Shown in pieces: positions 20,802 to 57,574 of a stretch of 62,839 nucleotides of DNA (position 1 is its first letter; the number at the start of each line of letters is the position of its first letter). A program made the translations under genes and the position numbers. Source of the stretch: a virus (Duplodnaviria; Caudoviricetes); IMG/VR virus record IMGVR_UViG_3300047548_001519, positions 1 through 62,839 of that record. The stretch is one strand, 5' to 3'. The notes beneath the pieces are model-generated. The model searched no databases and had not been told where the DNA came from. It saw only the letters and a list, made by a program, of their open reading frames with translations.

Positions 20802-20878
20802 TATAAATAGGAGTAGGTCGCGGAGCTGTAACTCCCACCTACACTACCCATTTATCAGTTATTTTATAGGAAAACAAC
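20802..20878 (+). promoter_or_regulatory. T4 late promoter plus conserved structured leader, copy 1
   Basis: TATAAATA then GTAGGT-CGC-GGAG..CTCC-C-ACCTAC. Confidence 0.75.
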
Positions 20879-21586
20879 ATGGACAGCAACTTTATTTACT
20901 GTGTTTATCTCACAACATATCGTGGAAATAAACTCCCTCCCTTCTACATCGGATCTTCCAGTATTGATAGAATAACTAAAGGATATCACGGTTCTGTGTT
21001 GTCCAAAAAGTACTCCGATATATGGAAAACCGAGTTACGTATCAACCCCCATCTATTCAAAACACAAATAATATCTAAACATACAAACCGCAAAGAAGCT
21101 CTTGCGAAAGAAAATTATATTCAAAAAACACTAAATGTAATAAAGTCTCCTTTATATATCAACCAAGCAATTGCTCAAATTAATGGATATGCTGGACACG
21201 ATGTTTCGGGTGTATGTAATCCTATGTATGGACAAGGTCACAAAGTAAAGGGTATGAAAAATGGTAGATATGGAGATAGCAGAACTACCTTTAAGGATAA
21301 AAACGGTAATAATATCTTCACATCACCACAAGATCCAAGAGTTGTTTCTGGCGATCTTATTGGAATAGGCACCAACGGCAATAAAATTAGCATTACTAAA
21401 CTTTCTGCAAAATTTCCCAATTGCAAAAAACAAACTCGTGGTGAGTTGTACAAACACATATATGATTGCTATATATCCTCAAAACTAAAGCGAACCATAT
21501 TTTGCAAAAATCACTCGCTTGATTACAATACCTTCTTAAAAATCATCAAGGTCGTTGAGGAGCAATCTACAGCGATATTTAATTAA
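20879..21586 (+). CDS. Antisense free-standing GIY-YIG-like (Seg-type) homing endonuclease
   Basis: YCVYLT...PPFYIGS, GYHGS, ...KE..Q......YIN; 3' end overlaps the rnh 3' end. Confidence 0.8.
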   Translation: MDSNFIYCVYLTTYRGNKLPPFYIGSSSIDRITKGYHGSVLSKKYSDIWKTELRINPHLFKTQIISKHTNRKEALAKENYIQKTLNVIKSPLYINQAIAQINGYAGHDVSGVCNPMYGQGHKVKGMKNGRYGDSRTTFKDKNGNNIFTSPQDPRVVSGDLIGIGTNGNKISITKLSAKFPNCKKQTRGELYKHIYDCYISSKLKRTIFCKNHSLDYNTFLKIIKVVEEQSTAIFN

Positions 21587-22441
21587 ATAATTCATCACGC
21601 TCATTTTATCGCCCTTTGGAGTATTGTTAATAAAACAATTTATTACGGACTGCTCTACTTGGTGAGGTATTGCTGATAAATCAACCAGCGACGTATTGCG
21701 ATCCCAATTACGTCGTTCCTCATCATTGATGCAGGCATCTCGACCACGGGCGATAAAATCTGCAAGTCTTTTACTTGTCATTTTGCTTTGACGTGTTCCC
21801 TCTGTCACCAGTGCATCATCTCTTGACAATATATTTGGAATACCATCCCCCGAATCACCCTTTGCAATATGCTCAGCAAGGTATGCTATTGGATCATCAC
21901 ATTGTACCATCTTCTTTTGGATTGGACTATACTGCTTTACATTATCATACTTGTGAAGCTGTTTAAAGTCACCATCAGACGATACTATCATGATTGGCTG
22001 CTTCTGTTCAAAAAAGAAGTAGTCCTCTAGATGGTTTGTTTGTGACCACTTACAAATAGTAGCTACAATGTCATCTGCCTCAATATGGTCGAGATGAATC
22101 ACCTTGTAAGGAAAGTGAGCTGCAATATCCTCCCTTATCTGGGAGATGGTATCAAAGATCAGTTTCCAATCGAGATCGGACTGCGAACGAGCTTTGCTTC
22201 GGCCAGCTTTGTAGTAAGGGAAGATGTCCTTTCTCCAGTACTGCTTACCGTCACATGCAAGAATGATATCACCATACTGTTGACCAAACTTCTTCTTGTA
22301 GAATTTGAGCCCAGTAAGGATAGCATGACGAATAATATTCACAGCTTCCGGATTGTTTGCTTCCTTCTTCAGGTCTGCTTGGAATTGAAAGATGTTGGAT
22401 AGTGCCACTTGGCTGTAGTCTAGGATAATAATTTTAGTCAC
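21536..22441 (-). CDS. rnh: T4-type RNase H (5'-3' exonuclease, FEN family)
   Basis: ILACD...YWRKDIFPYYKA.R, EADDI, IVSSDGDFKQL, GDSGDGIPN. Confidence 0.92.
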   Translation of the reverse strand: MTKIIILDYSQVALSNIFQFQADLKKEANNPEAVNIIRHAILTGLKFYKKKFGQQYGDIILACDGKQYWRKDIFPYYKAGRSKARSQSDLDWKLIFDTISQIREDIAAHFPYKVIHLDHIEADDIVATICKWSQTNHLEDYFFFEQKQPIMIVSSDGDFKQLHKYDNVKQYSPIQKKMVQCDDPIAYLAEHIAKGDSGDGIPNILSRDDALVTEGTRQSKMTSKRLADFIARGRDACINDEERRNWDRNTSLVDLSAIPHQVEQSVINCFINNTPKGDKMSVMNYLIKYRCRLLLNDLDDF

Positions 22442-22445
22442 CTTT

Positions 22446-23555
22446 TCAGTTAACAGCTAGAAGAACCATCTCTTCAGTAATCCGAGCTCGAGGACTTGAG
22501 ACCTTTGCGCGAACTGCCTTCCAAGCATTTGCCATTGCACGCTTGCCCATCGATGTGAGTCCTTTGAAGAACTCTTCTGGCTTACGTAGCGTTTTCACTT
22601 CAGACGTCTTAGTATCATAGTTAGAGATAGACATACCACTAACACTGAGGTATCCACCATCCGCTCCACGATATACAATCAGCTTTCGTTTCTCTGGCAC
22701 ATACACCCAAAGCTCTGTGGATCCAATGATCTTAGCTGGATCAATCGACTTCAATTTCAACTCAGGATACTCACGCATATACTTCATCTTCTTCACAACT
22801 ACGGATGCTGGCTTAGCCTTACGAGCACGAGGCTTGCGTTGAGCTTTAGCAGATACCGTCTGTTGGGTACAGTCATCAATAATCGACTGAATGAATGCAA
22901 TGAATCGACGAAGCTCAATCCGACCGAAGTTAGAATATCCTTCTTTTAGCTGATCGTCTTTGCCTTGTTGGACTTCCGTAAGTTCTTTGATCATGGGCTT
23001 GTAGAATTCACCTATCTTCTTAGCAACAGCACCCGACACTTGATTAGATGCAAGATAGTTCTTAGCAACAAACGTTGTACCTTTGGTAGTTGCGTACTCA
23101 TCGATAGCTGCATCAAACTCTGCTGCATGTGTACGAGCTGCTTCAAGCATTCGATCTTGAATTGATATAGGAGTGGGAATAGCAGCATTGATGACAGCAG
23201 GCTCTGCCACTTTTGTTTTGGAATGAGCTTTCTTAATTTTCTCAAGACTAATCATAACACGCTCAACTTCACTTAGCTCAACATGCTGTTCAGTGAGAAC
23301 AAGACGACCAATTACACCAACTGGTCGGATCTCGATGAATGATGCTTTTGAAAGAGGTTGTGTATACTCCTTCAACCCCATCTTTTTGATGTACACCTCA
23401 GCTGCTTTACGGTAGTCCTTTTCTTCCCAATTAGCATTGTACCAATTAAGAGCTTTAACAAGGTCTACTCGATAGTTGTCTTTAGAAACCCGAGGCTCAT
23501 CACCTCGGAGTTTTGTCATTGACTCTTCCAGACTCATTTTACGTTTAACTGCCAT
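22446..23555 (-). CDS. Conserved T4-like hypothetical protein
   Basis: ALNWYN, QLKEGYS, SIDPAKIIG..ELWVY, KTLRKPEE motifs; own promoter TTGACA-N17-TATAAT at 23610-23582. Confidence 0.7.
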   Translation of the reverse strand: MAVKRKMSLEESMTKLRGDEPRVSKDNYRVDLVKALNWYNANWEEKDYRKAAEVYIKKMGLKEYTQPLSKASFIEIRPVGVIGRLVLTEQHVELSEVERVMISLEKIKKAHSKTKVAEPAVINAAIPTPISIQDRMLEAARTHAAEFDAAIDEYATTKGTTFVAKNYLASNQVSGAVAKKIGEFYKPMIKELTEVQQGKDDQLKEGYSNFGRIELRRFIAFIQSIIDDCTQQTVSAKAQRKPRARKAKPASVVVKKMKYMREYPELKLKSIDPAKIIGSTELWVYVPEKRKLIVYRGADGGYLSVSGMSISNYDTKTSEVKTLRKPEEFFKGLTSMGKRAMANAWKAVRAKVSSPRARITEEMVLLAVN

Positions 23556-23617
23556 AATGGATCTCCATTCAAAGAATATCTATTATAATATAGTCTGGAA
23601 TTTATGTCAACAGCTTG

Positions 23618-23884
23618 TCACTCGCCTTTTTGGCCAGTGATCTCTTCATAGAGCATTTCAAACTGTTCGTGGTTGGCTACTTCTTCTTGGAAGTTCTGTT
23701 TGTGATACACACGTGCCATCTTAGCAATCTGTTTCTTGGAAAGGTTGTCCTTAAATTCCTCAAACAAGTCTGCTTTGATATCTTTAATAAGATCACGTTC
23801 GGATTCAATCCGAGTCATACTATTGCTAATCTCTTGCAATGCATCTTTAATCTTTTTGCGGTCGGCTGGGGAACTAATAGTCAT
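23618..23884 (-). CDS. dsbA: T4 DsbA-like double-stranded DNA-binding protein
   Basis: E.S.SM.RI..E...IKDI, ...KMARVYHKQNF.E....E.FE.LYE; T4 phage dsbA, not the disulfide oxidoreductase. Confidence 0.75.
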   Translation of the reverse strand: MTISSPADRKKIKDALQEISNSMTRIESERDLIKDIKADLFEEFKDNLSKKQIAKMARVYHKQNFQEEVANHEQFEMLYEEITGQKGE

Positions 23885-23900
23885 TTTCACACTCCATTGT

Positions 23901-24206
23901 TTAAATTTCATTTGTACTACTAATACTAAATTTTACTTCTTTCACTGAGTCGAGTTTAAAAGATCTCCATTCCTGGATGTCAAGGTCGAACACTCTTTGC
24001 GTGGTATCAGTAGTGCTGCGACCTGTCCCTTTAGGCTTTTTCTCAGCTGGGATGTGGTCTTCAATGAGTGTGCAGTGCATGGTACGGTCTGTACCGTCTG
24101 CTTTGGTGAAAGTAATACACAAATTTTCGACGTTTCGGTCATGTAACAATCCTTGAATGTACTCTTTTGTAAATTTAAGATCTGTTGATTCCATAATGTA
24201 TTTCAC
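23901..24206 (-). CDS. WYL-like/SH3-fold phage protein (DUF2693-like)
   Basis: ITFTKADGTDRTMHCTL ... VFDLDIQEWRSFKLDSV. Confidence 0.7.
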   Translation of the reverse strand: MKYIMESTDLKFTKEYIQGLLHDRNVENLCITFTKADGTDRTMHCTLIEDHIPAEKKPKGTGRSTTDTTQRVFDLDIQEWRSFKLDSVKEVKFSISSTNEI

Positions 24207-24373
24207 TCCTTTCTATATTCTATTGGACTTATGTCCCTCAAATCATCCTGCCTGTACTCATAATCACCTATTTCTTCATCCATTCGTCTTCGGAGTTCCT
24301 CTTCAATTTGTCGTAACTTCATGATACGCTTAACATCTTTGAGCTCTTGTTGAAGATCGAATGACATACCCAT
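24203..24373 (-). CDS. 56-aa acidic coiled-coil protein (MGMSFDLQQELKDVKR...), not in ORF track
   Basis: AGGAG RBS; fills the gap between neighbours. Confidence 0.55.
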   Translation of the reverse strand: MGMSFDLQQELKDVKRIMKLRQIEEELRRRMDEEIGDYEYRQDDLRDISPIEYRKE

Positions 24374-24382
24374 ATACTTCTC

Positions 24383-24598
24383 CTATACGAATAATCCTAC
24401 AAAATACACTAAAAATAAAGTCATATTTACCACTACAAGACTTAGCTCACGAATTCGAATTGACCAAATTAGCCACAACAAGGTGGCCACATTTGCAATC
24501 CAAATGTTCAATGGAGTAATGTCTAAACTGGTAAGTATGGCAAATATCACCAGGAGGACAGTTGCTGTCCACTTCAACCAAAAATTAAATGTTTTCAT
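24383..24598 (-). CDS. Small membrane protein
   Basis: Three hydrophobic helices. Confidence 0.6.
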   Translation of the reverse strand: MKTFNFWLKWTATVLLVIFAILTSLDITPLNIWIANVATLLWLIWSIRIRELSLVVVNMTLFLVYFVGLFV

Positions 24599-24629
24599 AC
24601 GTCAATCTTATACCAATTAACGTATTAAG

Positions 24630-25589
24630 TCAATACTTCTTTTTTGGTCTGGATTTCCAATACTGATCGCCTGGTTCGAAGGCAGGATGCTCTTTTACGT
24701 CTTTAGAACTCTCTACAGGAGCAGACTGTTCAGATTCTGGAGTCACTGTGGGCTCCGTTTTCTCAACAATTTTTTTCTTCAAGACCACATTTGTTTGTTT
24801 TGGGATAGTAGAAGGAATAGTCCGTTCTACAGGAGGAGATTGTTTGCTTTTATTTTGTGCAAGTGACCAGTTAGCTGCTATCAACATGAGAACAGCTAAC
24901 GGATCGAATACTGCTACAATTAGGATGGTAACCCAACGGACTGCTTTTTCGAGGAGCGCCGTGTCCGACGTGGCTTCGTCGCCGTAGATGAGAGCTGCGA
25001 TGTATTTGATTGGTCCGACTTCGGCTTCGACTTTGCGGAGCGAGGCTGACTGGACGGACTTTTCTTCGTTGAGCTTGGCAATGGTGGATTGACTGGACTG
25101 GATTTGATCGAGGAGGATTCCTCGTTCTTTTTGTTGCTGTTGTCTGGCTTGGACACTTCGGGTGACGTTTCCAAGTTGCGTGAACTTATCAACTTGCGCA
25201 TCCAGTTGAGTAATTGCTTTACGAGCTGCATCTATATTCTCCCTTTCGGTTTTAATTTTTTCATCGATCAACGCTACATTAGCTGCAATGTCTCCTGTTG
25301 GAGTGCCTTGTTCGATATGAGCTTTTGACAAGAATCCAAAAATCCCCATTGATGTCAAAAACATTAACACAATCAACGCTAGTGTCAAATACGATTTCAA
25401 CAAGAAAGGAGCTGGTCTCCAATTCCTATACAACCATGAAGCGACAACAAGTTTAGAGGACTCTAAGAGAGACCCCATCACTATGATTGGTATTGGAGCA
25501 GCTGCAAAAATAGCAACTAATCCAAAAATGGCATAGAATGCTGCAACACCCGACAACGCGAGTGCGCATAGTAAAAGTAAGTAAGTCAA
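24630..25589 (-). CDS. Membrane protein with long coiled coil (conserved in T4-like phages)
   Basis: N-terminal TM helices, TSMGIFGFLSKAH, EAEVGPIKYIA, FDPLAV. Confidence 0.75.
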   Translation of the reverse strand: MTYLLLLCALALSGVAAFYAIFGLVAIFAAAPIPIIVMGSLLESSKLVVASWLYRNWRPAPFLLKSYLTLALIVLMFLTSMGIFGFLSKAHIEQGTPTGDIAANVALIDEKIKTERENIDAARKAITQLDAQVDKFTQLGNVTRSVQARQQQQKERGILLDQIQSSQSTIAKLNEEKSVQSASLRKVEAEVGPIKYIAALIYGDEATSDTALLEKAVRWVTILIVAVFDPLAVLMLIAANWSLAQNKSKQSPPVERTIPSTIPKQTNVVLKKKIVEKTEPTVTPESEQSAPVESSKDVKEHPAFEPGDQYWKSRPKKKY

Positions 25590-25601
25590 AACACAAATCC
25601 T

Positions 25602-25669
25602 TATAAATAAAGGTAGGTCGCGATATGGGGATATCCACCTACTCTAACATCTATCTAGGAGACGTCAGC
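25602..25669 (+). promoter_or_regulatory. T4 late promoter plus conserved structured leader, copy 2
   Basis: TATAAATA, GTAGGT-CGC-GATAT..ATATC-C-ACCTAC, TCTAACATCT..AGGAGACGTCAGC-ATG. Confidence 0.8.
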
Positions 25670-26218
25670 ATGGATATTTATTATGTATATGCTTACATTC
25701 GATCAAAAAATTCATCAACAGCTAAGGCTGGAACACCATATTATATTGGTAAAGGCAAAGGCAAGCGCAGATTCCAACGTCATCACAGCGTCTCAGTCCC
25801 CAAAGATCACACTAAAATTATTATTTTAGAATCAAACTTATCTGAAATTGGCGCACTAGCAATAGAACGTCGTATGATCAGGTGGTGGGGCAGAAAAGAC
25901 CAAGGGTCTGGAATTCTCCACAATAGAACTGATGGTGGCGACGGTCTTACAGGCGTTTCGGGAGAAAACCACCCTCGATGGGGGAAACCACGACCCGATC
26001 TAGCCGAAAGAAATAAGCAAAGAGCTGGGTCAAAATGGCCGTCTGATACACCCCACTACAACACAGGTAAAGTACGATCAGCTGAGACTAGGCTCAAACA
26101 AAAAAATGCACCTCGTAAACCTCACTCAGAAGAAACAAAAGCCAAAATGAGGCTTGCTGCTTTAAGGAGATATCAACGATCTGATATGATTTCTGTGGAC
26201 CCTACAATTCACGATTGA
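25670..26218 (+). CDS. Antisense GIY-YIG homing endonuclease with NUMOD3-like tail
   Basis: YYVYAY...PYYIGKG, E..MI..WGRKD...[18 protein letters not shown]. Confidence 0.85.
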
Positions 26219-26569
26219 ATTGTACCACTTATCTGGATGTTCTAACACTCGCCTATCAAACTGTTCGCGAGCTTCAAGGTAGTTTGCAGTTCCTTTGTTT
26301 AAACAAAAATATAAAATTTCACGCTTGAATGATTCCTCTCCAAGCTTCTCCACTTCTTGTTTTAATTCTTCGGAAGAGGACCAGTATTCTCTCCAGTCCG
26401 ATTCTACTTTATATCTTTTTTTCTTGCCTTTGACTTGTTTAGTCTTGGCAAATTTTGTAAGTTTCAAACCAATATATTGTTTACCATTAACCAGATTAGT
26501 TATCAGATAAACAAAGGCTGTATATTTAGGATCTATTTCCTCTACAGGTTGGTTTTGATATAACCACAT
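26162..26569 (-). CDS. GIY-YIG family nuclease (core T4-like type)
   Basis: [38 protein letters not shown]. Confidence 0.8.
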
Positions 26570-26718
26570 TATTCGTCGTCGATTTCGTCTTCTTCATCGT
26601 ATATATCTGACCCACATACAGGGCAGCAAACGATATCTTGATATTCATAATCTGTTCCTTTCACTGTTATTTTGCCTTCAGCACCGCAATGTTCGCACTC
26701 GAATTGTTTTACAACCAT
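26569..26718 (-). CDS. 49-aa zinc-ribbon protein (MVVKQFECEHCGAEG...CCPVCGSD), not in ORF track
   Basis: Two CxxC pairs, acidic tail, TAATG coupling. Confidence 0.7.
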   Translation of the reverse strand: MVVKQFECEHCGAEGKITVKGTDYEYQDIVCCPVCGSDIYDEEDEIDDE

Positions 26719-26720
26719 TA

Positions 26721-26966
26721 CTACCCTCTTATTTTTAGATTGAGTGTAAAATTTTCAACCACGAGCTTTACTACCGTGGCAAACATAATCTCATTAAAAT
26801 TAGGTTCATTATATTTATCTTTAAACATTTCTAGCACATTTAAAGTCATCAATCGATACGTCTCTTCCTCAGAGATGGCAAGCATGCCCCAATCAATAGG
26901 GTCTTCTGCTTCCACCTCTTGTGCAAGTTCAGATATCAATTCAACATATTCAGGGGTGATTTGCAT
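26721..26966 (-). CDS. Hypothetical protein
   Basis: GGAG RBS; AEDPIDWG motif. Confidence 0.6.
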   Translation of the reverse strand: MQITPEYVELISELAQEVEAEDPIDWGMLAISEEETYRLMTLNVLEMFKDKYNEPNFNEIMFATVVKLVVENFTLNLKIRG

Positions 26967-26967
26967 A

Positions 26968-27177
26968 TTACTCCGTATCTAAGATCAACTCTATTGCTTT
27001 AAGCTCTGGATTCCATTTAAGTTTAACAACTTCTCTGAACCCTTCTGGTGTCCAGACAATAGCTGGCATGTGTATATATGTCTTATGCAGACTACCACTA
27101 GATTTATCTGAGTGATCAGCCCAAAGTTGTTGTATTTCGTGATACAAGTCGTATGCGTCCACATTACCTCCAAACAT
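26968..27177 (-). CDS. Hypothetical protein
   Basis: Fills the gap downstream of nrdB. Confidence 0.5.
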   Translation of the reverse strand: MFGGNVDAYDLYHEIQQLWADHSDKSSGSLHKTYIHMPAIVWTPEGFREVVKLKWNPELKAIELILDTE

Positions 27178-28875: not shown

Positions 28876-28937
28876 TGAGATCTCCTTAATAGATGCATTG
28901 GTCTATTTATAATCTTGGAGATCTCAATGCATCTATT
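28871..28937 (-). promoter_or_regulatory. Late promoter inside an RBS-sequestering hairpin for the endonuclease
   Basis: TGCATTGAGATCTCC ... TATAAATA ... GGAGATCTCAATGCA: 15-bp inverted repeat covering RBS and ATG. Confidence 0.85.
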
Positions 28938-30751: not shown

Positions 30752-30763
30752 ACCTACCTCTTA

Positions 30764-32675: not shown

Positions 32676-32791
32676 AATATCTCCATAATGATCGTCTATG
32701 ATACACGACGATCCATTACAAATCAAGCGTAAAATAAAGTTGACTGATAATATATGGCCCCTGTAGAATTTTCTATGTGGGGTTGCATGTA

Positions 32792-44722: not shown

Positions 44723-44731
44723 ATTGATATC

Positions 44732-46114: not shown

Positions 46115-46164
46115 ATTAATTCCTAAAGGTGAAATTCATCTTGTATTTATCCGAAAGAAACATC

Positions 46165-47717: not shown

Positions 47718-47980
47718 GTACCACCAGTGTAAACAATATCATTAGTTTGAAGCTTTTCTGTGATCAAGTCCAGGAGAAGATCCCCTGCGTATTGTTCGAA
47801 GGCCTTCATATCATCCGGCACCTTCTTAGAAAAAAAGTTTATATCAAAAGAGAGCTTAAGTTCATCATTACCCTCATCAGGCAGCAATTCCACCCTACCG
47901 TATTGGTATACTATACCAGTGTACGGTGGGTCGATCAACTCTATGTATTGATCATCAACTATCTTGTATGGCTTCATCAT
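47714..47980 (-). CDS. gp40-like head assembly chaperone (by synteny)
   Basis: Small gene between uvsX and 41, as in T4; sequence support weak. Confidence 0.45.
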   Translation of the reverse strand: MMKPYKIVDDQYIELIDPPYTGIVYQYGRVELLPDEGNDELKLSFDINFFSKKVPDDMKAFEQYAGDLLLDLITEKLQTNDIVYTGGT

Positions 47981-49704: not shown

Positions 49705-49797
49705 GGGTTCCTTGTTGATTGTTTTAAAGAGGGGAACTACCCCTCACTTTGTATTTATGTATATAAATTGACATTCTACAGAAATATTTTGTATAAA

Positions 49798-52302
49798 TCA
49801 ACTGAACCAATCTTCCAAAGAAGATTTCTGTTCAGAACTCCAACCTAGTGAATCAAGAATGTTCTGAACGGCATCCTTGAATGTCTTCTCGAACATTGTA
49901 TCATAGTCAACGTATTTTGACAAATTAAACTCTTCTGGCAACTTATCAACAAACGAGATGCAGTCTTCGTTGAATGGATTAGGTGTTCTCAGATATGTGA
50001 ACTTGACCTTGTCCCCTTCTCGAATCAAAGGATACTTCTTGGTCAATCCCATCTTGTTAACATAGTGGTTGTACAATAAAGCACCACGAACATGGATTGG
50101 CGTTCCCTTTGAATATATAGAAGTTGCACTTTGATACTTTTTCACATCACTAATTCCTCGAGGAAAGGCCACCTCTTCTACAGATAGCTTCTCGAATTCT
50201 GTTTTATACTTAGCCACATACAGCTGTACATCTGCCTCAGTACCACGAAGAATTGTATTCAATGAGTCCTTGAGCTTATCACGAATCACGGCCGGTGTAC
50301 TAGATTTAACCATCTGCAGACCCATGATCTTGAGTTGAGGTTCCTTGTACTGCACCCCCTCTGAGTTGTGTACTGACATCACATAACGCTTCTTACTAAC
50401 AGAGATCATAACATCAGCAAGGTTTTCTCGCTTCATTTGCATCTTCTGCTCATACGCATTCATGTAGTCAGCTAACGCTTGGTATGACTCGTCAATGACA
50501 GGTTGAATCTTCTGCTCAGCAATCTTATCCATAAACTCGATGACCTTCTCTGTAGGAAGATCTACCTTACCACTTGCACCGTATACTTTCTGAACTAAGT
50601 CGTTCAAAGTTAATACAACAGAGTCAGTGTCAATTAGAACAATACGATCAACATCTTCTGTCTTTAAAATCTTGTTGAAGTATTGGTTAAGTCTATTAGC
50701 AATCCAACGAATAGATAGCTGACCGCTAATAGTGATCCCCTCTGCAATTCGCATATCGAAGTAACGGAAGTATGCATTACCACAGGCACCATAAGCACTG
50801 TTCAGCAAGATCTTCATCGCCATCTGCAGATTGTTGAGTCGACTAATCTCCATCTGCCACTTTGCGTCACCAGAGTTAGCATACTCTTGCTTAGCTTTCA
50901 GCATCTCCTTCTTGTAGATTACTCGACGATCATAATACAATTGCATTAGAGTTGGTAGCAGACCTCTCTTATCACGTCTAAAGCACCAACCGTTAGCAGC
51001 AACAGCGAAGTCATTATCATGTGCTTGAGACAAATCACATTTCTGCTCAAGTAAGCCATCAACAGATACATCCAGACGAAGATCCGTGATGGTCTCTGGA
51101 CTCATGTTGTATTGCATAATCAAGTGTGGATACAGACTGTTCAAGTCGAACGATACGTTCCAATGATGCTTACCAACCAATGGATCTTTTACATATGCGC
51201 CTTCATACGCTTGGGACTTTGTTCCGTCCTTACGACGAGGAATAACAATCTTTTGATCATTCAGATAATTGTAGATGATGATGTCCCAGGTCTTCACTGG
51301 ACTGAACACATCTTCGTAGTTGACCTTAGCATCATATGCCATAGTCAATACAAGATCCATCAACTTCATTTTTGCGTCTAGCTTATCAACCAACTCCACA
51401 TCTCGAATGTTATAATCTACGAATGTTTGCCAGTGATTGGTATAGAAGTCTTTGAAAGATGTTCCTGGATTCTCTAACTTACGTTCACCAAGCTCAACAT
51501 ACGCAATGTAATCCAACTTGTAGGACTCTTGAGCGGAGTATGTAAACTTCTTGTATAGATCAAGATAGTCGAGAGAAGCGACCCCCATGATATATGTCTT
51601 GACTGCTGTGCGTCCACCTAGATCAACATCTCGCTGATTAACAACACCCCATGGCGATAACTTCTTAGCAAGTTGTTCACCAACGACATGAACCAATCTA
51701 TTATAGAGATATGTGACGTCAAACAATGAACTGTTCCAACCAGTTATAGCATCTGGACAATTATGTTGCCACCACGAAATGAAGTCTTTGAGCATGGACT
51801 GCTCTGACGAAAACTCTCGATACTCTACGTGCGTTTGTGAGTTGTCATAGGCGTATGTACCCCATGTAATGATGGAATTATGACGTGTATCTTTAACAGA
51901 TATTAGCAGGATCCGTTCACCAGCTGTTGCTGGATCCGGAAACCCACTCTCAACCTCTGTCTCGATATCAACTGTGAATACTTTGATGTCGTTTGGTGAC
52001 CACCGAATCTCACCTGGCCACTCTTCTGCAATATATTGATAGACGTTACCTGGTGATTCGTATACGTCGAATCCATGGACGTCTTTATATCTTTCAACGA
52101 ACTCCTTACAGTCGTTGATTGATCCAGGCTGAATAGCTTCAACACGTGTTCCGTCTAACGTACGCCATGGAGATGTGGGTGACTTGTTAGATATCCAAAC
52201 TGTTGGAGAGAATGGAACCTTACCACTGTAACGCTGTCCATCTTTTACTCCCCGAACATAAATCTGATTACCACGCTGTGATACATTTGTGTACAAAATC
52301 AT
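49798..52302 (-). CDS. Family B DNA polymerase (T4 gp43-like)
   Basis: DIET exonuclease, GWN...FD, SFDLNSLYPH, K..LNS.YG, DTDS; uninterrupted. Confidence 0.97.
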   Translation of the reverse strand: MILYTNVSQRGNQIYVRGVKDGQRYSGKVPFSPTVWISNKSPTSPWRTLDGTRVEAIQPGSINDCKEFVERYKDVHGFDVYESPGNVYQYIAEEWPGEIRWSPNDIKVFTVDIETEVESGFPDPATAGERILLISVKDTRHNSIITWGTYAYDNSQTHVEYREFSSEQSMLKDFISWWQHNCPDAITGWNSSLFDVTYLYNRLVHVVGEQLAKKLSPWGVVNQRDVDLGGRTAVKTYIMGVASLDYLDLYKKFTYSAQESYKLDYIAYVELGERKLENPGTSFKDFYTNHWQTFVDYNIRDVELVDKLDAKMKLMDLVLTMAYDAKVNYEDVFSPVKTWDIIIYNYLNDQKIVIPRRKDGTKSQAYEGAYVKDPLVGKHHWNVSFDLNSLYPHLIMQYNMSPETITDLRLDVSVDGLLEQKCDLSQAHDNDFAVAANGWCFRRDKRGLLPTLMQLYYDRRVIYKKEMLKAKQEYANSGDAKWQMEISRLNNLQMAMKILLNSAYGACGNAYFRYFDMRIAEGITISGQLSIRWIANRLNQYFNKILKTEDVDRIVLIDTDSVVLTLNDLVQKVYGASGKVDLPTEKVIEFMDKIAEQKIQPVIDESYQALADYMNAYEQKMQMKRENLADVMISVSKKRYVMSVHNSEGVQYKEPQLKIMGLQMVKSSTPAVIRDKLKDSLNTILRGTEADVQLYVAKYKTEFEKLSVEEVAFPRGISDVKKYQSATSIYSKGTPIHVRGALLYNHYVNKMGLTKKYPLIREGDKVKFTYLRTPNPFNEDCISFVDKLPEEFNLSKYVDYDTMFEKTFKDAVQNILDSLGWSSEQKSSLEDWFS

Positions 52303-52359
52303 TCCTCATATCAATAGAATCATATAATATTATCCCTCATCACGTGATAAAAATCCATC

Positions 52360-53661
52360 TCATTTAATGTCCTTTGATGAGTCTGCCTCTGTCTTATCTA
52401 GTCTAAATTCCAAAAACACGGGAAGAAACAAAGAATCAACATCCGATTTCTTGTCAGTGATCCGAGCATTATACTTGATAGCAACAATCTGACCAATCAC
52501 ATCAGGCTTAATATTGTCTCGATCTTCATCACTGAACCCAGTACCCAGGCCAACTCTAACTAAACCATCAGCTGATTCAAGGACCAATGCGCCCATACGT
52601 CCAACGTTTTTTCCTGTACCCTCAACCCAGTCAACAATCTTTAGGTCACACTCAAGTTCACCTTTGAATTTGATCTGATGCTTGGATCGTTTGTTCTCCC
52701 AGATCATGTCTCTGGTCTTGAGAATGATTCCTTCTTGACCTTGAGCAAGATACTGTTCAAACAAGGTCTGAGCTTCGTCAATGCTATTTACTGTCTTCAT
52801 TTCAACAAGATCAACACGATGGTTGCTTGCATGAGTAATAGCAGACGACAACAGTCGTAGACGCTCTTCGTACGATCTCCTGCATACACCAGCCTCAAAG
52901 TCGCTCAACGGAATCATATCCCAAAGAGTTGCACATACAAGTTCACCTTCAGATTCTGATTGAGTTCCTTTCACTGCTTTGTTGAGAATGCCGTTACCTG
53001 TCTTACGATCAAGAATCCGACCATTCTCTTTGATTAGCAACTCACCATCGAACACTACATTCTGGCCAGCTGCCATGTAGATGAATGGAAGTTCAAACAA
53101 TGGATCTGCAATCTGAATCTCTTTACCATTACGCGAACGGAACTCAACAGCACCATTACGTACGATGGCATTGAACCGCATCCCATCCAACTTCAATTGA
53201 ACGTATGCTGGAAATTTAACTTTATCAACCAGCTTCTGGTCATATGCAGACGCGAGCATGCAAGGATACTCAGCAATCAGACCTGGCCACACTTTGTTAG
53301 CAGTGCTATCACTAACACCACACTTGAGATCCTTCTGAATAATGCGTTCAATGACTTGAGCATCTTCAGTATCAAGATCACTAAGCAGCTTTGCCAGGAA
53401 CTCGATAGCTGCATTACCGGTAACCGTACGAGAGGACAGCATTGCCAGACCGTCTAGGGCAGCATCAAGAGACCCTGCTAGGGTAGCTGGGGCGGGCTTA
53501 TAGGAGGGAATCTTGCGAATGTAGAAATTCACCATTGAATTAACAGCTAAGAACACCACGCGCTTCAGTGTATGATTGTCCTTGTATGACTCTAGCAATT
53601 TAATTTTGTCATTTCTACCAGAAAGTTCTGAAATTTCAGTTAAGATTTTATAAATACTCAT
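52360..53661 (-). CDS. ATP-dependent DNA ligase (T4 gp30-like)
   Basis: QLKLDGMR, FDGEL, EGIILK, WENKRS...IKFK, LFLPVF..FR.DK. Confidence 0.95.
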   Translation of the reverse strand: MSIYKILTEISELSGRNDKIKLLESYKDNHTLKRVVFLAVNSMVNFYIRKIPSYKPAPATLAGSLDAALDGLAMLSSRTVTGNAAIEFLAKLLSDLDTEDAQVIERIIQKDLKCGVSDSTANKVWPGLIAEYPCMLASAYDQKLVDKVKFPAYVQLKLDGMRFNAIVRNGAVEFRSRNGKEIQIADPLFELPFIYMAAGQNVVFDGELLIKENGRILDRKTGNGILNKAVKGTQSESEGELVCATLWDMIPLSDFEAGVCRRSYEERLRLLSSAITHASNHRVDLVEMKTVNSIDEAQTLFEQYLAQGQEGIILKTRDMIWENKRSKHQIKFKGELECDLKIVDWVEGTGKNVGRMGALVLESADGLVRVGLGTGFSDEDRDNIKPDVIGQIVAIKYNARITDKKSDVDSLFLPVFLEFRLDKTEADSSKDIK

Positions 53662-53710
53662 GATGTATCCTTTTACTCAATTATACAAATTATACTTTAA
53701 AGGAAATTTA

Positions 53711-54379
53711 ATGTCAACACACGTAGTATATTGGATCCACAACGACTTGATGGTGAATTACAAAGATCAAGGATACGTAGGAGTCACTAACAACCTAGAG
53801 AGACGAACAAAACATCATTTTTCAAACCTTCGAAATAATCGACATATTAACCCTTACCTCCAACATGCATTTAATCAAAATAATAACATGGTTGTCGTAG
53901 TTTTGTATGAAGGTAATGAGCAAGAATGTTATGAATTTGAAAGAAGTGCTCGTCCATCGTGTAATGTTGGTTGGAACCTAATTGAGGGAGGATCTGCGCC
54001 TCCAAGAGGTTATCGAAAATACACCACATTGTCAGAAGAACACAAAGCCAAACTCCGAGATAATCATAAAGGCATGTCTGGTAAATATCACTCAAGTGAA
54101 ACAAAAACAAAAATGTCAATTGCAGCATCAAACCGAACAACCTCAGACAAAACCAGAGAATCTATATCTAACTCAAAGAAAGGTGAGAACAACCCAAATT
54201 TTAATAAGCCCAGGTCGCAAGAAGTGAAAGATAAAATACGAAAAACAAACAAGACTATGGTTGAAATTCGTCATGAATATTCATCTGTTACTGGAATACC
54301 ATATAAACAAGTGTCAAAAAAGGATGCTAATTTTTGTTTGTATGTTGATCGATGTAGGGAGGAAGGACGATTCGATTGA
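53711..54379 (+). CDS. GIY-YIG-like homing endonuclease, divergent from the ligase gene
   Basis: VVYWIH...GYVGVT.NL.RR..H, GWNL.EGG, HSSETK.KMS NUMOD3 repeats; lacks the shared leader. Confidence 0.8.
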   Translation: MSTHVVYWIHNDLMVNYKDQGYVGVTNNLERRTKHHFSNLRNNRHINPYLQHAFNQNNNMVVVVLYEGNEQECYEFERSARPSCNVGWNLIEGGSAPPRGYRKYTTLSEEHKAKLRDNHKGMSGKYHSSETKTKMSIAASNRTTSDKTRESISNSKKGENNPNFNKPRSQEVKDKIRKTNKTMVEIRHEYSSVTGIPYKQVSKKDANFCLYVDRCREEGRFD

Positions 54380-54411
54380 TCATAATCAATCCAAAAATAA
54401 TAATAAAAGTC

Positions 54412-54436
54412 AACTGGGGGATTGACCCCCAGTTTT
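54412..54436. terminator. Bidirectional hairpin terminator between convergent genes
   Basis: AACTGGGGG-ATTGA-CCCCCAGTT followed by T run. Confidence 0.75.
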
Positions 54437-54438
54437 AC

Positions 54439-54627
54439 TTAGATTTCTGATCCCATTTCTAGATCATGAATTGCATCTTCATCGTTTTGATCAATCACAA
54501 AGTCGAAACATTCCGACAATTCTGTCATTTCTTCTTTTTCAATTTTATTGAATTTAGAAGTTTTGGTGTTTGAGAAGGCTTTTTGGATTAAGTTTAGTTG
54601 AGCATTGGAGAGGATGATTGTAGGCAT
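54439..54627 (-). CDS. Hypothetical early protein
   Basis: Start MPTIIL after AAGGA; promoter TTGACA-N17-GATAAT at 54684-54656. Confidence 0.55.
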   Translation of the reverse strand: MPTIILSNAQLNLIQKAFSNTKTSKFNKIEKEEMTELSECFDFVIDQNDEDAIHDLEMGSEI

Positions 54628-54698
54628 TTTTGGTTCCTTTTTTGACAGAACCGTCATTATCTCATGGTGCCCAATTAATGTCAACCGCTAAACAATTC

Positions 54699-55019
54699 TT
54701 AACGTGATGCTAATACACTCGCTGGTGCAATTTGAATCTTGGAAAACACACGATTGTATTCATCAAGAATTTGCTGTTTGAGCTCACTTGTGGAGGATAC
54801 AACAGCACTTTGATTGAGTGCAATCTCACCTTCTGCATAAGGCATGAAAGGAGCAAATCCGGTTGTCATTCTTCCATCATTAGTTGGTTGATATACTAAA
54901 GATACTACATCTTCTAAAACATATTCATTTCCTGAAACAGTTCTGAAGGATGTGACTTTTGCGATAATCTCTTCACCAGATATTAACTTAAATAATTTGA
55001 TATCATGCATATTTTTCAC
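54699..55019 (-). CDS. Conserved T4-like Sm/SH3-fold protein (KLISGEEIIAKV)
   Basis: Motif commonly found downstream of hsp20 in T4-like phages. Confidence 0.65.
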   Translation of the reverse strand: MKNMHDIKLFKLISGEEIIAKVTSFRTVSGNEYVLEDVVSLVYQPTNDGRMTTGFAPFMPYAEGEIALNQSAVVSSTSELKQQILDEYNRVFSKIQIAPASVLASR

Positions 55020-55197
55020 CTAAAAAGTTTACAAAATTAACTACCTGCATTTCGCTACTAAAGAATTTGGCTATAACTTCATCATCATGTATGTTCTGCG
55101 CAATCAATATGAATTGAGGGTCATTGTATACCTTCGTGTACGAAAGTTTTACAATCCAATTTCCAAATCTAGTAGGGTGAAATGTAGTAAGTTCCAT
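55003..55197 (-). CDS. Hypothetical protein
   Basis: Fills the gap downstream of hsp20. Confidence 0.5.
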   Translation of the reverse strand: MELTTFHPTRFGNWIVKLSYTKVYNDPQFILIAQNIHDDEVIAKFFSSEMQVVNFVNFLGEKYA

Positions 55198-55229
55198 GTT
55201 GCTGAGGGGGCATTGCTGCCCCCAAGTAT

Positions 55230-55766
55230 TTACAGTTTCTTAGAACGAGCTTTTTTAATTTGCTCGTGATCTTCCTCTGTAAGAAGTTGAGCATTGCCTT
55301 TTGAGAATACTGTAACTGTTGAAGGTTCATCAGCTACTTCAATCTTCTTAGGCTTCTTATGCTCAGGGATGATACGTTCAAGAGCGATCTGCAACATGCC
55401 GTTCATAAGACCAGCTCCCTTAATCTCAATTTGATCATTGAGTGCAAAGGTGCGAGTGAAGTTACGAGCAGCGATTCCGCGGAACAGATAATCTGTAGCA
55501 GGATCTTCTTTTGCATTGCCTCGAACAACTAGTTTGTCATCAACAAACTCAACTTCAATCTCTGACCTGCTAAAGCCAGCAACAGCCATTTCGATGACGT
55601 ACTTGTTGTCATCAACTTTACGGATGTTGTATGGAGGATAGTTGGGAATGTTTTTTGTGACCTCATCATGTAGTTTTGCCATTCGATTGATTTGTTCGTC
55701 AAAACCAACGAAGTACTTATCAAACAATTGCATATCACGACCAAAGACATCTTTAATGTATGTCAT
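55230..55766 (-). CDS. hsp20: Small heat shock protein Hsp20 (IbpA-like)
   Basis: NYPPYNI, IEMAVAGF, RGIAARNFTRTF.L, NGML.I.L.R.IPE.KKP.KI. Confidence 0.95.
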   Translation of the reverse strand: MTYIKDVFGRDMQLFDKYFVGFDEQINRMAKLHDEVTKNIPNYPPYNIRKVDDNKYVIEMAVAGFSRSEIEVEFVDDKLVVRGNAKEDPATDYLFRGIAARNFTRTFALNDQIEIKGAGLMNGMLQIALERIIPEHKKPKKIEVADEPSTVTVFSKGNAQLLTEEDHEQIKKARSKKL

Positions 55767-55774
55767 AGTTTTCT

Positions 55775-55970
55775 CCTTTGTTAAGCGAGAGTTAAAAGAA
55801 AAGTATACCCAATTGGCGTATACTAGCCGGTTACTTTATCCGGCACACACTCACAGAGGTGCAGTGAAATCTCCCTGGACGCCTTTACCGTAGCGTCAAA
55901 CAGCCCTAAGGTGGGCCAAAAACTAGTGGGGTTTTGAACTGACCCCAAACAGTCTTCCCATCCCTGAGAA
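55775..55970 (-). ncRNA. Structured 5' leader of hsp20, resembling the manA RNA motif
   Basis: Hairpins GACGC..GCGTC, GCCGG-ATAAAGTAA-CCGGC, GTATAC..GTATAC, GGGGT..ACCCC; family assignment from memory only. Confidence 0.5.
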
Positions 55971-55971
55971 T

Positions 55972-56085
55972 TTATTTATTAAAACGGTTCTTGATTTTTG
56001 CTGTCAATTCAGCAGCCCAAGAAGGTTGAGGAAGATTCCAACCAACAACAATACCTACAAGAACCCAAAGAATAGTGTTAAGCAT
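55972..56085 (-). CDS. 37-aa membrane peptide (MLNTILWVLVGIVVGWNLPQPSWA...), not in ORF track
   Basis: GGAGG RBS; G...GWN.PQP.WA motif. Confidence 0.6.
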   Translation of the reverse strand: MLNTILWVLVGIVVGWNLPQPSWAAELTAKIKNRFNK

Positions 56086-56272
56086 TTGTTTCCTCCGCTT
56101 GATGAGGGGTCATAGATTGAATTTCTAACAACTGCGTTTCACCTTGATTTTTAATTTTTTGAATCAAGGCAGCAATTTCTTCGAAAGGATGTTTGCCCAA
56201 AGATCTCAAAATTACATTGATTTCATTTACTGTCAATTCTAATTTAAGAACAGCGTCTTGTTGATTTTCCAT
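56078..56272 (-). CDS. Small conserved phage protein (LTVNEIN.IL..LG.HPF.E...LI.KI..Q)
   Basis: GAGGA RBS; recognisable motif. Confidence 0.6.
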   Translation of the reverse strand: MENQQDAVLKLELTVNEINVILRSLGKHPFEEIAALIQKIKNQGETQLLEIQSMTPHQAEETNA

Positions 56273-56303
56273 AATTTATTTTCCTCTTTTTTGGCCAATA
56301 TTA

Positions 56304-56374
56304 TATAAATAAGAATGTAGTTCGCGATGGTTGCACATCCAACTACCCTAACATCTATCTAGGAGACATCAGCT
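56304..56374 (+). promoter_or_regulatory. T4 late promoter plus conserved structured leader, copy 3
   Basis: TATAAATA, GTAGTT-CGC-GATG..CATC-C-AACTAC, CCTAACATCT..AGGAGACATCAGC. Confidence 0.8.
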
Positions 56375-56983
56375 ATGGTATCAAGTATTTATAGAGCAAC
56401 AAACACCTTTACTAATAAAGTATATATCGGGTTTGCTATGGATTTTGTTGCCAGAATACGTCGACATAAAATCCTATACAAAACTACAAATACTAAATTT
56501 TATAATGCAATTAAAAAATACGGCTGGGATGCTTTTAAATGGGACATCCTTTACCAATCACGTGATCAGCAACACTGTCATCAAGTAATGGAATCGTTAT
56601 TTATTCAGGAATATGATTCCATTGAAAATGGGTACAACACCACTGAAGGAGGACGTGGTGTGATAGGAGCCGCTAGAAATCGAATATGGATTAACGACGG
56701 TACCAATCACAAACGAGTGCCTGAAGATTGCATTCCTGAAGGGTGGGCCATTGGAAGAGTTGGGTTACAACGCAAATTTAATACTCAATGGACCCCCAAC
56801 CGAAAACCACGCAGATCATATGCTGGAGGAAATAACCCTGCAGCAAAATCGGTATCTATTCACGGAATTCGATATGATACCATGAAAGATGCTGTCAACA
56901 ACTTAAAACTATCAGAGCCGACAATTAGACGCAGATGCAAGTCTAGCTCTTCTGAGTATGCTGATTGGTTTTATGTGTTTTAA
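56375..56983 (+). CDS. Antisense GIY-YIG homing endonuclease
   Basis: SIYRATN..TNKVYIG, F..AIKKYG...F, E..FI..YDS...GYN.T.GG. Confidence 0.88.
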   Translation: MVSSIYRATNTFTNKVYIGFAMDFVARIRRHKILYKTTNTKFYNAIKKYGWDAFKWDILYQSRDQQHCHQVMESLFIQEYDSIENGYNTTEGGRGVIGAARNRIWINDGTNHKRVPEDCIPEGWAIGRVGLQRKFNTQWTPNRKPRRSYAGGNNPAAKSVSIHGIRYDTMKDAVNNLKLSEPTIRRRCKSSSSEYADWFYVF

Positions 56984-57389
56984 CCCCGATATTATATTTG
57001 GGCACCAACTCCCACTCATTTTTCTCTTTATAAGAGACGATTTTAATCTGAGATAAAACTGATTGGGTGCCTGTATTTGGTTTATTAACTAACTTCAACA
57101 ACCCCCACTCTTCCAGCAAAATAGCAATAGCATTTCGCCGTTCAACATCATTCACTGTAATATCCGAATCTTTATTATCTAAAATAAAAAGTTCTTTAAA
57201 GTGAACGATAAAATACCTACCCTGCTTATGCAAGATATGTGCTGATTGGTATAACTTCTTGTCTTTTTTTGATGCCACCCCAATACGAGTTAACGTCTCT
57301 TTCACCTTCAAGAAATTGTCCGGTGTGGGTAGCGTGATTTCTAACATAGACTCTGGAGCCCAGTCGTAGTAGATCACGTCGTTATTCAT
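56943..57389 (-). CDS. regA: Translational repressor RegA
   Basis: MLEI.L..PDNFLKVKETLTRIGVAS.KDK.LYQS.HILHKQGRYFIVHFKE. Confidence 0.95.
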   Translation of the reverse strand: MNNDVIYYDWAPESMLEITLPTPDNFLKVKETLTRIGVASKKDKKLYQSAHILHKQGRYFIVHFKELFILDNKDSDITVNDVERRNAIAILLEEWGLLKLVNKPNTGTQSVLSQIKIVSYKEKNEWELVPKYNIGVKTHKTNQHTQKS

Positions 57390-57483
57390 TGTTTTCCACC
57401 TTTATCCATCTGTTGTTTTATAACATTTATTTGCTCATTGGAAAGGATAGACATAGCTTCCAGAGCCTTTTCCGTCGAGTATT
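57386..57483 (-). pseudogene. Duplicated 3' remnant of the gp62 gene (98 bp)
   Basis: YSTEKALEAMSILSNEQINVIKQQMDKGGKQ* versus gp62 end YSTEKALEAMSILSREQINAIKQQMDKGGKA* at 58138-58041. Confidence 0.85.
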
Positions 57484-57506
57484 TATAAAAACAAACTGTT
57501 TGGAAT

Positions 57507-57574
57507 AATAAATAGTGTAGATCGCGAGGCTCCCAACCTCCATCTACTCTAACATCTTTCAAGGAGATATCAGC
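57507..57574 (+). promoter_or_regulatory. Late promoter variant plus conserved structured leader, copy 4
   Basis: AATAAATA, GTAGAT-CGC-GAGG..CCTC-C-ATCTAC, TCTAACATCT..AGGAGATATCAGC-GTG. Confidence 0.8.

Follow-up and report, generated by a model that had tools for sequence, protein, structure and literature searches.

The question raised by this locus is why homing endonuclease genes (HEGs) of different nuclease families, lying antisense to their surroundings in one phage contig, should all begin with the same structured leader. The DNA examined here, referred to below as the window, is the whole of the IMG/VR virus record IMGVR_UViG_3300047548_001519 (62,839 nt), a virus contig with an estimated completeness of 38%. 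An initial annotation, made from the letters alone, had pointed to four plus-strand copies of one element ahead of four such HEGs. We found that the element is a widespread, strongly covarying module, tied to HEGs and absent from Rfam, and that the second of its two hairpins pairs fully only on the strand opposite to the nuclease mRNA. The reading that we favour, with a probability of roughly 45%, is that of a portable module with two facing late promoters, which would make both the nuclease mRNA and a cis-antisense RNA of ~65 nt.

All four copies were located on the plus strand, at the places given by the initial annotation, by inspection of the sequence and by pattern match. The pattern of the first hairpin (P1), GTAGNTCGCG-N8-20-CCANCTAC, gave four matches in the window and none in each of 100 dinucleotide shuffles, and an unfiltered covariance-model scan of the window returned only the same four copies, at 63-78 bits, with the runner-up at 19.5 bits (E 0.06). 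Read along the HEG strand, the element consists of a late-promoter box (N)TAAATA, P1, a single nucleotide, the second hairpin (P2), in whose loop and 3ʹ arm the Shine-Dalgarno sequence (SD) lies, the start codon, and an inverted box TATTTA. P1 is built of a 6-bp outer stem, a C-R-C/C internal loop and a variable inner stem. In the window it reads GTAGNT-CGC-(inner stem-loop)-C-ANCTAC; the outer stems (GTAGGT/ACCTAC, GTAGTT/AACTAC and GTAGAT/ATCTAC) show the compensatory changes described earlier, the inner stems differ and the CGC/C loop is constant. The late-promoter box is TATAAATA in copies 1-3 and AATAAATA in copy 4, with a spacer of 2-5 nt to P1, and P2 reads CTAACATCT...AGAYRTCAG in copies 2-4, where it is followed by C and the start codon. 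The last part had been described as diverged in copy 1, which turned out to be wrong, as P2 is kept there in the form CTACCCAT/ATGGACAG, with the ATG inside its 3ʹ arm.

To see how far the element extends beyond the window, IMG/VR was scanned with the P1 pattern, which yielded at least 120 loci; the family counts given below are drawn from them. In these loci 119 of the 122 strict-pattern matches were also accompanied by the upstream box and the downstream P2. The matches in L040, L058 and L093 lacked the flanking parts and were not found by the covariance model, and we discarded them as chance matches to the pattern. The covariance model gave 114 matches in a set made up of the window and 99 loci, to which another 20 loci added 22, and in doing so picked up about 13 copies outside the strict pattern. 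Covariation was evaluated on the model alignment of 110 distinct sequences, which, being fitted to the model, favours the structure. In this alignment 89% of the paired cells were observed as paired (72% in shuffles), both sides had changed at 16 of the 18 pairs, and there were 326 double-change cells against 78 in shuffles, a number reached in 0 of 500 shuffles. When the pairing partners were slid by 1-3 columns, the covariation score dropped from 0.44 to at most 0.056. An ungapped parse, carried out sequence by sequence on 109 leaders, agreed with the picture from the model alignment. The covariation foreseen for a larger alignment was therefore found, far above both the shuffled and the slid controls. 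The second expectation, that no Rfam family already describes the element, was also borne out: Rfam 15 gave nothing for the element at the gathering score in the window and nothing at E ≤10 at three copies in L002 and L003. Because the covariation is clear and Rfam gives no match, the element is a strong candidate for a new RNA family.

Outside of IMG/VR the element was met only sparsely. DNA BLAST against 50,697 phage records gave no match for a 1.9-kb region, a window copy or a consensus-like copy, and in 185,579 bacterial and archaeal species genomes there were seven matching contigs, all from metagenome-assembled genomes and none from isolates. A search with the copy 2 HEG protein, followed by the covariance model, disclosed one copy each in two cultured phages, Variovorax phage V45v66 (PV558790.1, 85989-86076) and Pseudoalteromonas phage vB_Psh_XG4 (PP712099.1, 56128-56223). 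In both of them the P1 outer stem is wholly changed, and the CGC/C loop and the A.C position are retained. Likewise, in the looser copies the entire P1 outer stem is swapped for another complementary sequence, and C-(G/A)-C...C and the junction TCTA are kept. P1 is also strand-neutral, with a mean pair probability of 0.79 on the plus and 0.71 on the minus strand when folded with 70-nt flanks. The constancy of the C-R-C/C loop and the UCUA junction, while all the surrounding stem pairs change, the two cultured phages included, could mean that P1 is the specific binding site of a phage or host protein, such as a translational repressor or an RNase, which would act on all HEG mRNAs together. We consider this highly improbable, as no candidate protein was identified, and since such a site leaves both the inverted box and the strand bias of P2 unexplained. 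RegA is encoded in the window, but RegA binds unstructured AU-rich sites, which speaks against P1 as its target.

The strand bias concerns P2. The suggestion that this hairpin is fully paired on the minus strand only, and with it the hint that the minus strand matters, was upheld by pairing and by folding, in all four copies as well as in the whole family. The third pair of P2 is A.C in 106 of 110 sequences and the fifth is C.A in 43 of 110, and both read G.U on the minus strand. Counted over all P2 cells, 96.2% are paired on the minus strand in comparison to 77.3% on the plus strand, and the mismatches comprise 173 A.C but only 7 G.U (67 versus 7 when the invariant pair is left out). The mean energy of P2 is -2.5 kcal/mol on the plus and -5.5 kcal/mol on the minus strand, the latter giving the more stable hairpin in 98 of 109 leaders. 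With 70-nt flanks, the mean pair probability of P2 is 0.15 on the plus and 0.61 on the minus strand, and it is predicted to exceed 0.5 in 10 of 106 and 66 of 106 leaders, respectively. The minus strand of the four window copies gives two clean hairpins, P2ʹ and P1ʹ (-14.5 to -23.9 kcal/mol, z -1.0 to -3.0), whereas on the plus strand P2 is poor or displaced by a different fold. P2 is thus a hairpin predicted to fold solely on the minus strand, and we read the near-exclusive A.C mismatches as the trace of selection for a minus-strand helix.

The boxes on either side of the hairpins were also found to be held in place. TAAATA lies within 16 nt upstream of P1 in 105 of 109 leaders, at a spacing of 5 nt in 82 of these 105. 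Downstream of P2, an exact TATTTA, which is the reverse complement of the late-promoter core, occurs in 97 of 109 leaders; counted from the final paired base of P2, it starts 6 nt downstream in 72 and 5-7 nt downstream in 90, so that the spacing between this box and P2 mirrors the spacing between the left box and P1. The offset between TATTTA and the ATG is 3, 4 or 5 nt in 15, 11 and 68 cases, and the box is accordingly read as MYL, MIFI or MxIY, HNH genes included. In the copies with the ATG inside P2 (copy 1, L043, L061 and L097) the distance of TATTTA is fixed to P2 and variable to the ATG. Since TATTTA is kept across three reading frames, the constraint is on the nucleotides and not on the protein. 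A promoter scan found no sigma-70-like sites ahead of the window HEGs, with the exception of a weak 9/12 site overlapping the box of copy 4.

In most copies the left box and the inverted box are exactly complementary, and they could act on the plus strand only, in the classic manner of phage T4. In read-through RNA, AUAAAUA would pair with UAUUUAU at codons 2-4 in a helix, here P0, and a three-way junction would close round P1, P2, SD and AUG and block translation; late RNA, which is without the 5ʹ arm, would be translated, and P1 would also shield its 5ʹ end. In the passages cited, this mechanism is documented for I-TevI, I-TevII, I-TevIII, segB, Aeh1 mobE and T4 e and soc (PMC2988022, PMC3014915), and Dassa et al. 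interpret their own HEG hairpins likewise in the part of their paper that we draw on (PMC2677866). P0 is present in the minimum free energy (MFE) structure in 70 of 109 leaders when the element is folded alone, and read-through does exist in the ~30% of copies where the upstream gene has the same orientation as the HEG and lies tight against it. However, with 70-nt flanks P0 is in the MFE structure in only 11 of 92 leaders, at a mean pair probability of 0.12. The complementarity shows no covariation and no extension past the 6-mer, as the seventh pair is canonical in 62 of 94 cases (59.1 expected) and the eighth in 40 of 94 (42.5 expected), and CTAAATA is never partnered by TATTTAG. P0 explains neither the predominance of A.C over G.U in P2 nor the predicted openness of P2 on the plus strand, and read-through on the HEG strand is scarce for the ~60% of copies whose two neighbours both lie on the opposite strand. 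Control by P0 alone is thus an unlikely account of the element, though one with good precedent.

We prefer two facing late promoters because such an arrangement accounts at once for the bias of P2 towards the minus strand, for the mirrored spacings and for a box that is kept regardless of reading frame, and because it does not depend on the genomic context. T4 late transcription starts ~6 nt past the box. By this rule the left box would be the late promoter of the HEG mRNA, which would start at or near the first G of P1, making P1 a 5ʹ-terminal hairpin, and P2 on this mRNA would be too weak to conceal the SD. The right box, in codons 2-4, would be a late promoter on the opposite strand, whose antisense RNA would start at the G just ahead of P2ʹ, fold as P2ʹ and P1ʹ, and then enter a U-rich tract that is the complement of the left promoter. 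Such an RNA would be wholly complementary to the HEG leader, SD and AUG, and might restrain the translation or the stability of a potentially harmful nuclease, like RNA-OUT of IS10 with its transposase, or SymR with symE. What we infer here is promoter activity of both boxes, the transcript ends, termination at P1ʹ and repression. The predicted antisense RNA has a median length of 65 nt (range 59-76), with both hairpins in the MFE structure in 82 of 109 leaders and a mean of 6 U in the 10 nt past P1ʹ. More tentatively, each cassette may encode its own ~65-nt antisense small RNA, which would be made from the late promoter in codons 2-4, fold as P2ʹ and P1ʹ, and act like a type I antitoxin or RNA-OUT. 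As P1, the junction and the base of P2 are common to the cassettes, the antisense RNAs of one genome might even cross-regulate several different nucleases at a time, which would amount to a copy-number control of selfish nuclease genes in lytic phages.

Several observations weigh against this arrangement. G.T pairs are also tolerated in single-stranded DNA (ssDNA), so that the strand asymmetry of P2 is no proof of an RNA, and the transcript starts were placed by the 6-nt rule of T4. TAAATA is low in information within AT-rich DNA, and the base 5ʹ of it differs between the two boxes: on the minus-strand box it is G in 18 of 94 and T in 5 of 94 cases, and at the left promoters G in 4 of 94 and never T. 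Within the window, the spacings between the left box and P1 are 3, 3, 5 and 2 nt, in comparison to the family mode of 5, and an exact inverted box stands at the usual place in only two of the four copies. The energy of P1ʹ is modest (about -9 kcal/mol), its base is AU-rich and AC separates it from the U run, and a simple terminator scan, which required an unbroken stem, made no call at it. Finally, P1ʹ of copies 1 and 2 is followed after 23-26 nt by the start of the divergent neighbour gene; efficient termination there would sever this gene, so that minus-strand RNA must often read through.

The working analogies closest to this facing-promoter arrangement are IS10 RNA-OUT and SymR. In IS10 RNA-OUT/RNA-IN and SymR/symE, two promoters face each other, the antisense promoter lies in or near the first codons, and a stable stem-loop RNA of ~70 nt is directed against SD and AUG; the targets are a transposase or a nuclease. 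The antisense RNA on our side of the analogy is a predicted one. A stable, selected structure on the antisense strand was found here in the P2 pairing, the folds and the covariation. The TAAATA on the minus strand, whose distance from P2 stays the same across three reading frames, is a candidate promoter. The differences are that the promoters here would be of the T4 late type and both fire at the same stage, that there are two hairpins, and that many nuclease genes of lytic phages, unrelated to one another, have the module in common. The cited part of the work on the T4-like cyanophage S-PM2 describes an antisense RNA, called CfrI, that lies opposite a HEG (PMC2984593). Compared by description, CfrI differs in being ~225 nt long and in linking the HEG to psbA (PMC2984593).

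The four window copies show how these parts are laid out and how far single copies depart from the family. In copy 1 the late-promoter box (20802-20809, plus strand) stands 3 nt ahead of P1 (20813-20842), which has the 6-bp outer stem, the CGC/C loop and the inner stem GGAG/CTCC. P1 is supported in all four copies by the pattern, the model and folding, and folds on both strands. P2 of copy 1 (CTACCCAT...ATGGACAG, 20844-20886, minus strand), located by the covariance-model alignment, has the SD in its loop and the ATG in its 3ʹ arm, and the minus-strand fold contains it as a long clean hairpin (-23.9 kcal/mol, z -3.0). The inverted box TATTTA at 20893-20898, which is TAAATA on the minus strand, begins at the distance usual for the family, 6 nt past the final paired base of P2. 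The box of copy 2 (25602-25609, plus strand) is again 3 nt ahead of P1 (25613-25642); P2 (CTAACATCT...AGACGTCAG, 25644-25668) forms nine contiguous pairs on the minus strand only, where the fold has -18.7 kcal/mol and z -2.9 (z -0.3 on the plus strand), and the inverted box TATTTA(T) is found on the minus strand at 25675-25680 by sequence and model.

In copy 3 the box (56304-56311, plus strand) is 5 nt ahead of P1 (56317-56346), and P2 (CTAACATCT...AGACATCAG, 56348-56372) is a 9-pair stem on the minus strand that is absent from the plus-strand MFE structure. Its inverted box, read from the sequence as TATTTATA at 56386-56393 (minus strand), is displaced 7 nt downstream, the usual place being taken by TATCAA. 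Copy 4 has its box (57507-57514, plus strand) only 2 nt ahead of P1 (57517-57547), a P2 (CTAACATCT...AGATATCAG, 57549-57573) whose minus-strand fold has -20.0 kcal/mol and z -2.4, and, judged from the sequence, a degenerate inverted box TATATA with one mismatch at 57580-57585 (minus strand).

The genes behind these leaders, all on the plus strand, had been labelled GIY-YIG-like in copies 1-3 and HNH in copy 4. Pfam agreed weakly with two of the labels: the copy 3 HEG (56375-56983, 202 aa) matched GIY-YIG (E 3e-4) and has an I-TevI-type DNA-binding domain, and the copy 4 HEG (57575-58078, 167 aa, GTG start) matched HNH (E 0.006) and has the motif HHIVPR. For the other two the label could not be upheld by Pfam, as the copy 2 HEG (25670-26218, 182 aa), of the YVYAY..PYYIGKG type, matched NUMOD3 only, and the copy 1 HEG (20879-21586, 235 aa) had no Pfam match. 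The latter matched PHROG 10820 (E 7e-34) and the homing endonuclease family phrog_314.

Other HEGs in the window had been said to be without the element, and this held. Since the model scores the four copies only, the HEG at 53660-54379 (plus strand) and the HEG remnant at 26162-26569 (minus strand), neither of which gave a covariance-model match, genuinely lack it. The remnant is a 135-aa open reading frame (ORF) with matches to GIY-YIG-type HEGs; this ORF and the copy 2 HEG are convergent, with an overlap at the 3ʹ end of the latter.

The four leader-bearing HEGs lie antisense between T4-type replication genes, with copies 3 and 4 on either side of regA. The replication module on the minus strand contains the sliding clamp (59738-60400) and the clamp loader (58752-59690 and 58041-58445), together with RegA (56943-57389), DNA ligase (52360-53661), DNA polymerase (49798-52302) and RNase H (21536-22441). 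A gene of the Hsp20 family of small heat-shock proteins (55230-55766, minus strand) was also found within the replication module. Further away, the minus strand carries a permuted transfer-messenger RNA at 9784-10218 (Rfam RF04321, 136 bits; ARAGORN tag peptide ANDERFALAA) and seven tRNA genes at 10518-17116 (Leu, Gly, Pro, Thr, Arg, Met and Asp).

This setting recurs in the family, where orientation was counted with crude greedy ORF calling. An upstream neighbour on the opposite strand was counted in 83 of 117 cases and an opposite gene past the HEG in 76 of 108; both neighbours are opposite in 61 of 102 (~60%) and both are on the same strand in 17 of 102. The question whether matches always stand upstream of antisense HEGs thus received a divided answer: nearly all stand upstream of HEGs, but only ~60% of these are antisense to both neighbours. 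Given such neighbours, the minus-strand features could serve the adjacent phage gene, the inverted box as its late promoter and P2ʹ with P1ʹ as its leader, a processing site or a stabiliser, acting also on read-through RNA of the host strand. In this way the polarity caused by inserting a cassette in antisense would be compensated, and the cassette itself would not easily be lost. The upstream opposite gene often starts 20-100 nt from P1, and in copies 1 and 2, where the start is 23-26 nt past P1ʹ, its mRNA must cross the element. In the cited section on T4, HEGs carry promoters for adjacent genes (PMC2988022), and the leaderless HEG at 53660, a GIY-YIG/NUMOD3 gene, holds within its first 60 nt a 12/12 sigma-70 promoter on the minus strand (TTGACA-17-TATAAT, 53717-53689) that is aimed into the DNA ligase gene, which starts at 53661.

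Nevertheless, we hold a service to the neighbouring gene to be improbable. Where the HEG runs in the same direction as the upstream gene (~30% of copies), the box and the A.C pattern are kept equally; the neighbour gene lies anywhere from 10 to >1400 nt away; and the neighbours in the window are early replication genes with no evident need of a late promoter. In addition, regA has a box of its own past copy 4: TATTTATA on the plus strand at 57480-57487, that is TATAAATA on the minus strand, lies just past P1ʹ of copy 4 and ~90 nt ahead of the regA start, and by its sequence could be regA's own late promoter.

If the leader is constant, what stands behind it is not. The claim that the conserved 5ʹ end does not depend on which nuclease it precedes was supported: the ORFs behind the element are nearly all homing endonucleases, of at least six N-terminal types, in >100 phage contigs. 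Among 103 unique ORFs of ≥95 aa, these types were YVYAY..PYYIGKG (31 ORFs), KTH..TGLKYxGxT (24), mob-like HHIxPK (16), canonical GIY..YIG (11), seg-like (5) and IHHxDG (3), with 13 others. Pfam matches in the same set were to NUMOD3 (44), HNH (15), HNH_5 (11), GIY-YIG (10), SegE-type GIY-YIG (4), a TnsA-like nuclease domain (3) and HNH_3 (3), and the homing-endonuclease families of PHROG matched the ORFs widely. When ten of the 13 others were scanned singly, nine matched HEG or endonuclease families; a single family scan of L124, a 99-aa zinc-finger ORF, gave no match. By BLAST single linkage, 98 of the 103 ORFs fall into one cluster, via shared modules. In two loci the ORF at the HEG position (L079, 4034-4597; L094, 1722-2660) has an N-terminal zinc-finger-like CxxC and a TnsA-like nuclease domain, the latter with the PHROG label 'head closure' (phrog_218, E ~1e-59); judged from its domains, a PD-(D/E)XK-type HEG is possible in both, comparable to the Vsr-like family that Dassa et al. 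describe. In L010, L019, L069, L089, L112 and L117 an intact leader stands ahead of a truncated, stop-interrupted or missing ORF, and in L071 a leader is directly ahead of a 558-aa terminase-like ORF. Leaders without an intact nuclease ORF indicate that the leader can outlive its nuclease.

Taken together, this shows that the nuclease domains have been exchanged behind a constant 5ʹ module. This bears on the earlier idea of a mobile cassette family, of which the shared 5ʹ end stands. A second end was not found, as the sequence after the stop codons of 97 ORFs had no enriched 8-mer and no strand difference in folding, and with no conserved 3ʹ cassette end the element is not a two-ended mobile unit. 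The presence of one 5ʹ module on unrelated nuclease domains also implies that cargo was exchanged by recombination at or near the module, and the element could then work at the level of DNA, its hairpins in ssDNA or cruciform form being a recombination or replication-linked site that moves or swaps HEG cargo, much as PeSL cassettes or integron attC sites do. The tolerance of ssDNA for G.T makes the strand bias compatible with this too, and in the passages cited the PeSL motifs offer a precedent of regulatory cassettes that mediate shuffling in T4-like phages (PMC4122927). Yet no conserved partner site follows the ORFs, no recombinase is associated, and every part, from the promoter through the SD in the loop of P2 to the start codon, corresponds to an expression signal that is correctly spaced; PeSLs, as described there, have early sigma-70 promoters and not late boxes (PMC4122927). 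A DNA site is, in our opinion, very improbable.

The likeness to PeSL cassettes lies in short conserved regulatory stem-loop cassettes beside variable genes, possibly mediating modular exchange, as the cited parts of two papers have it (PMC4122927, PMC2839356). In the same accounts, PeSL is a terminator with an early promoter and flanks ORFans in hyperplastic regions (PMC4122927, PMC2839356), whereas our element has late boxes, contains the SD and the start codon and is tied to HEGs, so it does not belong to PeSL. We also looked at whether multiple leaders of one genome had been homogenised. P2 similarity was 0.60 within contigs versus 0.53, a value matched by 78 of 2000 random subsets, and the P1 outer arm was less alike within contigs; the idea was set aside because the second copies had come via the looser model, which biases the comparison.

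The initial annotation had further speculated about a scaffold or guide RNA with a target-derived 3ʹ flank. This found no support, since the flank consists of the SD, the start codon, the conserved TATTTA and then the ORF, and since the nucleases are HEGs of the ordinary kind, guided to their DNA by protein modules such as NUMOD3 and those of the I-TevI type. A guide RNA of the omega-RNA/HEARO type is no better supported, as that type goes with IscB/TnpB-type proteins and a variable guide, and the cargo here consists of GIY-YIG, HNH and TnsA-like HEGs.

Among known systems, the element is a shared modular variant within the known class of phage-HEG regulatory leaders; what is new is the structure on the antisense strand and the inverted promoter box. 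In the sections cited, the hairpins of T4 HEGs differ from gene to gene, sequester the SD on the sense strand and have the promoter inside the 5ʹ arm, and promoters for neighbouring genes are embedded in HEG coding regions of T4-like phages (PMC2988022). As in the control of I-TevI, I-TevII, I-TevIII, segB and Aeh1 mobE, a late promoter TATAAATA lies just upstream and an RNA structure at the translation start, and the purpose is presumably late-only expression of the nuclease (PMC2988022). Here, in contrast, the promoter is followed by two hairpins that recur in different nuclease families and genomes. Of these, the one with the SD is predicted to form on the antisense strand and to stay open on the sense strand, and the helix that contains the promoter is weak.

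The statement that such hairpins are normally gene-specific nevertheless needs to be qualified in view of Dassa et al. 2009, who, in the passages we rely on, report hairpins in the 5ʹ untranslated regions of free-standing metagenomic HEGs, together with TATAAATA and a pair of conserved motifs that are complementary to each other (PMC2677866). Apart from this motif, we found no description of the element in the literature. The Dassa motif may be the same element, though by a comparison of descriptions their identity is unproven. Their loci are, in these passages, metagenomic, phage-like 'fractured gene' loci with GIY-YIG and PD-(D/E)XK-type HEGs, where the hairpin outlasts the loss of the HEG (PMC2677866). 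Similarly, leaders persist beside decayed ORFs in our set, and in L110 (3694-6388) a leader-bearing HEG splits the gene of the terminase large subunit into a Terminase_6N ATPase ORF and a Terminase_6C nuclease ORF. This HEG is a co-oriented case and overlaps the start of the second terminase ORF by 23 nt; no intein family was found in the split terminase. Dassa et al. treat their hairpins as sense-strand ribosome-binding-site hairpins, and the passages concerned contain no covariation analysis, strand asymmetry or inverted box, and no breadth past 16 loci (PMC2677866).

How a phage tolerates many selfish nuclease genes has so far been understood case by case in T4. The element described here would be a transferable control module that GIY-YIG-like, HNH and PD-(D/E)XK-like HEGs have in common in many uncultured and at least two cultured T4-like phages. 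Its strand asymmetry leads to a specific and testable claim, namely that an antisense RNA, and not a sense-strand ribosome-binding-site hairpin, is the selected structure.

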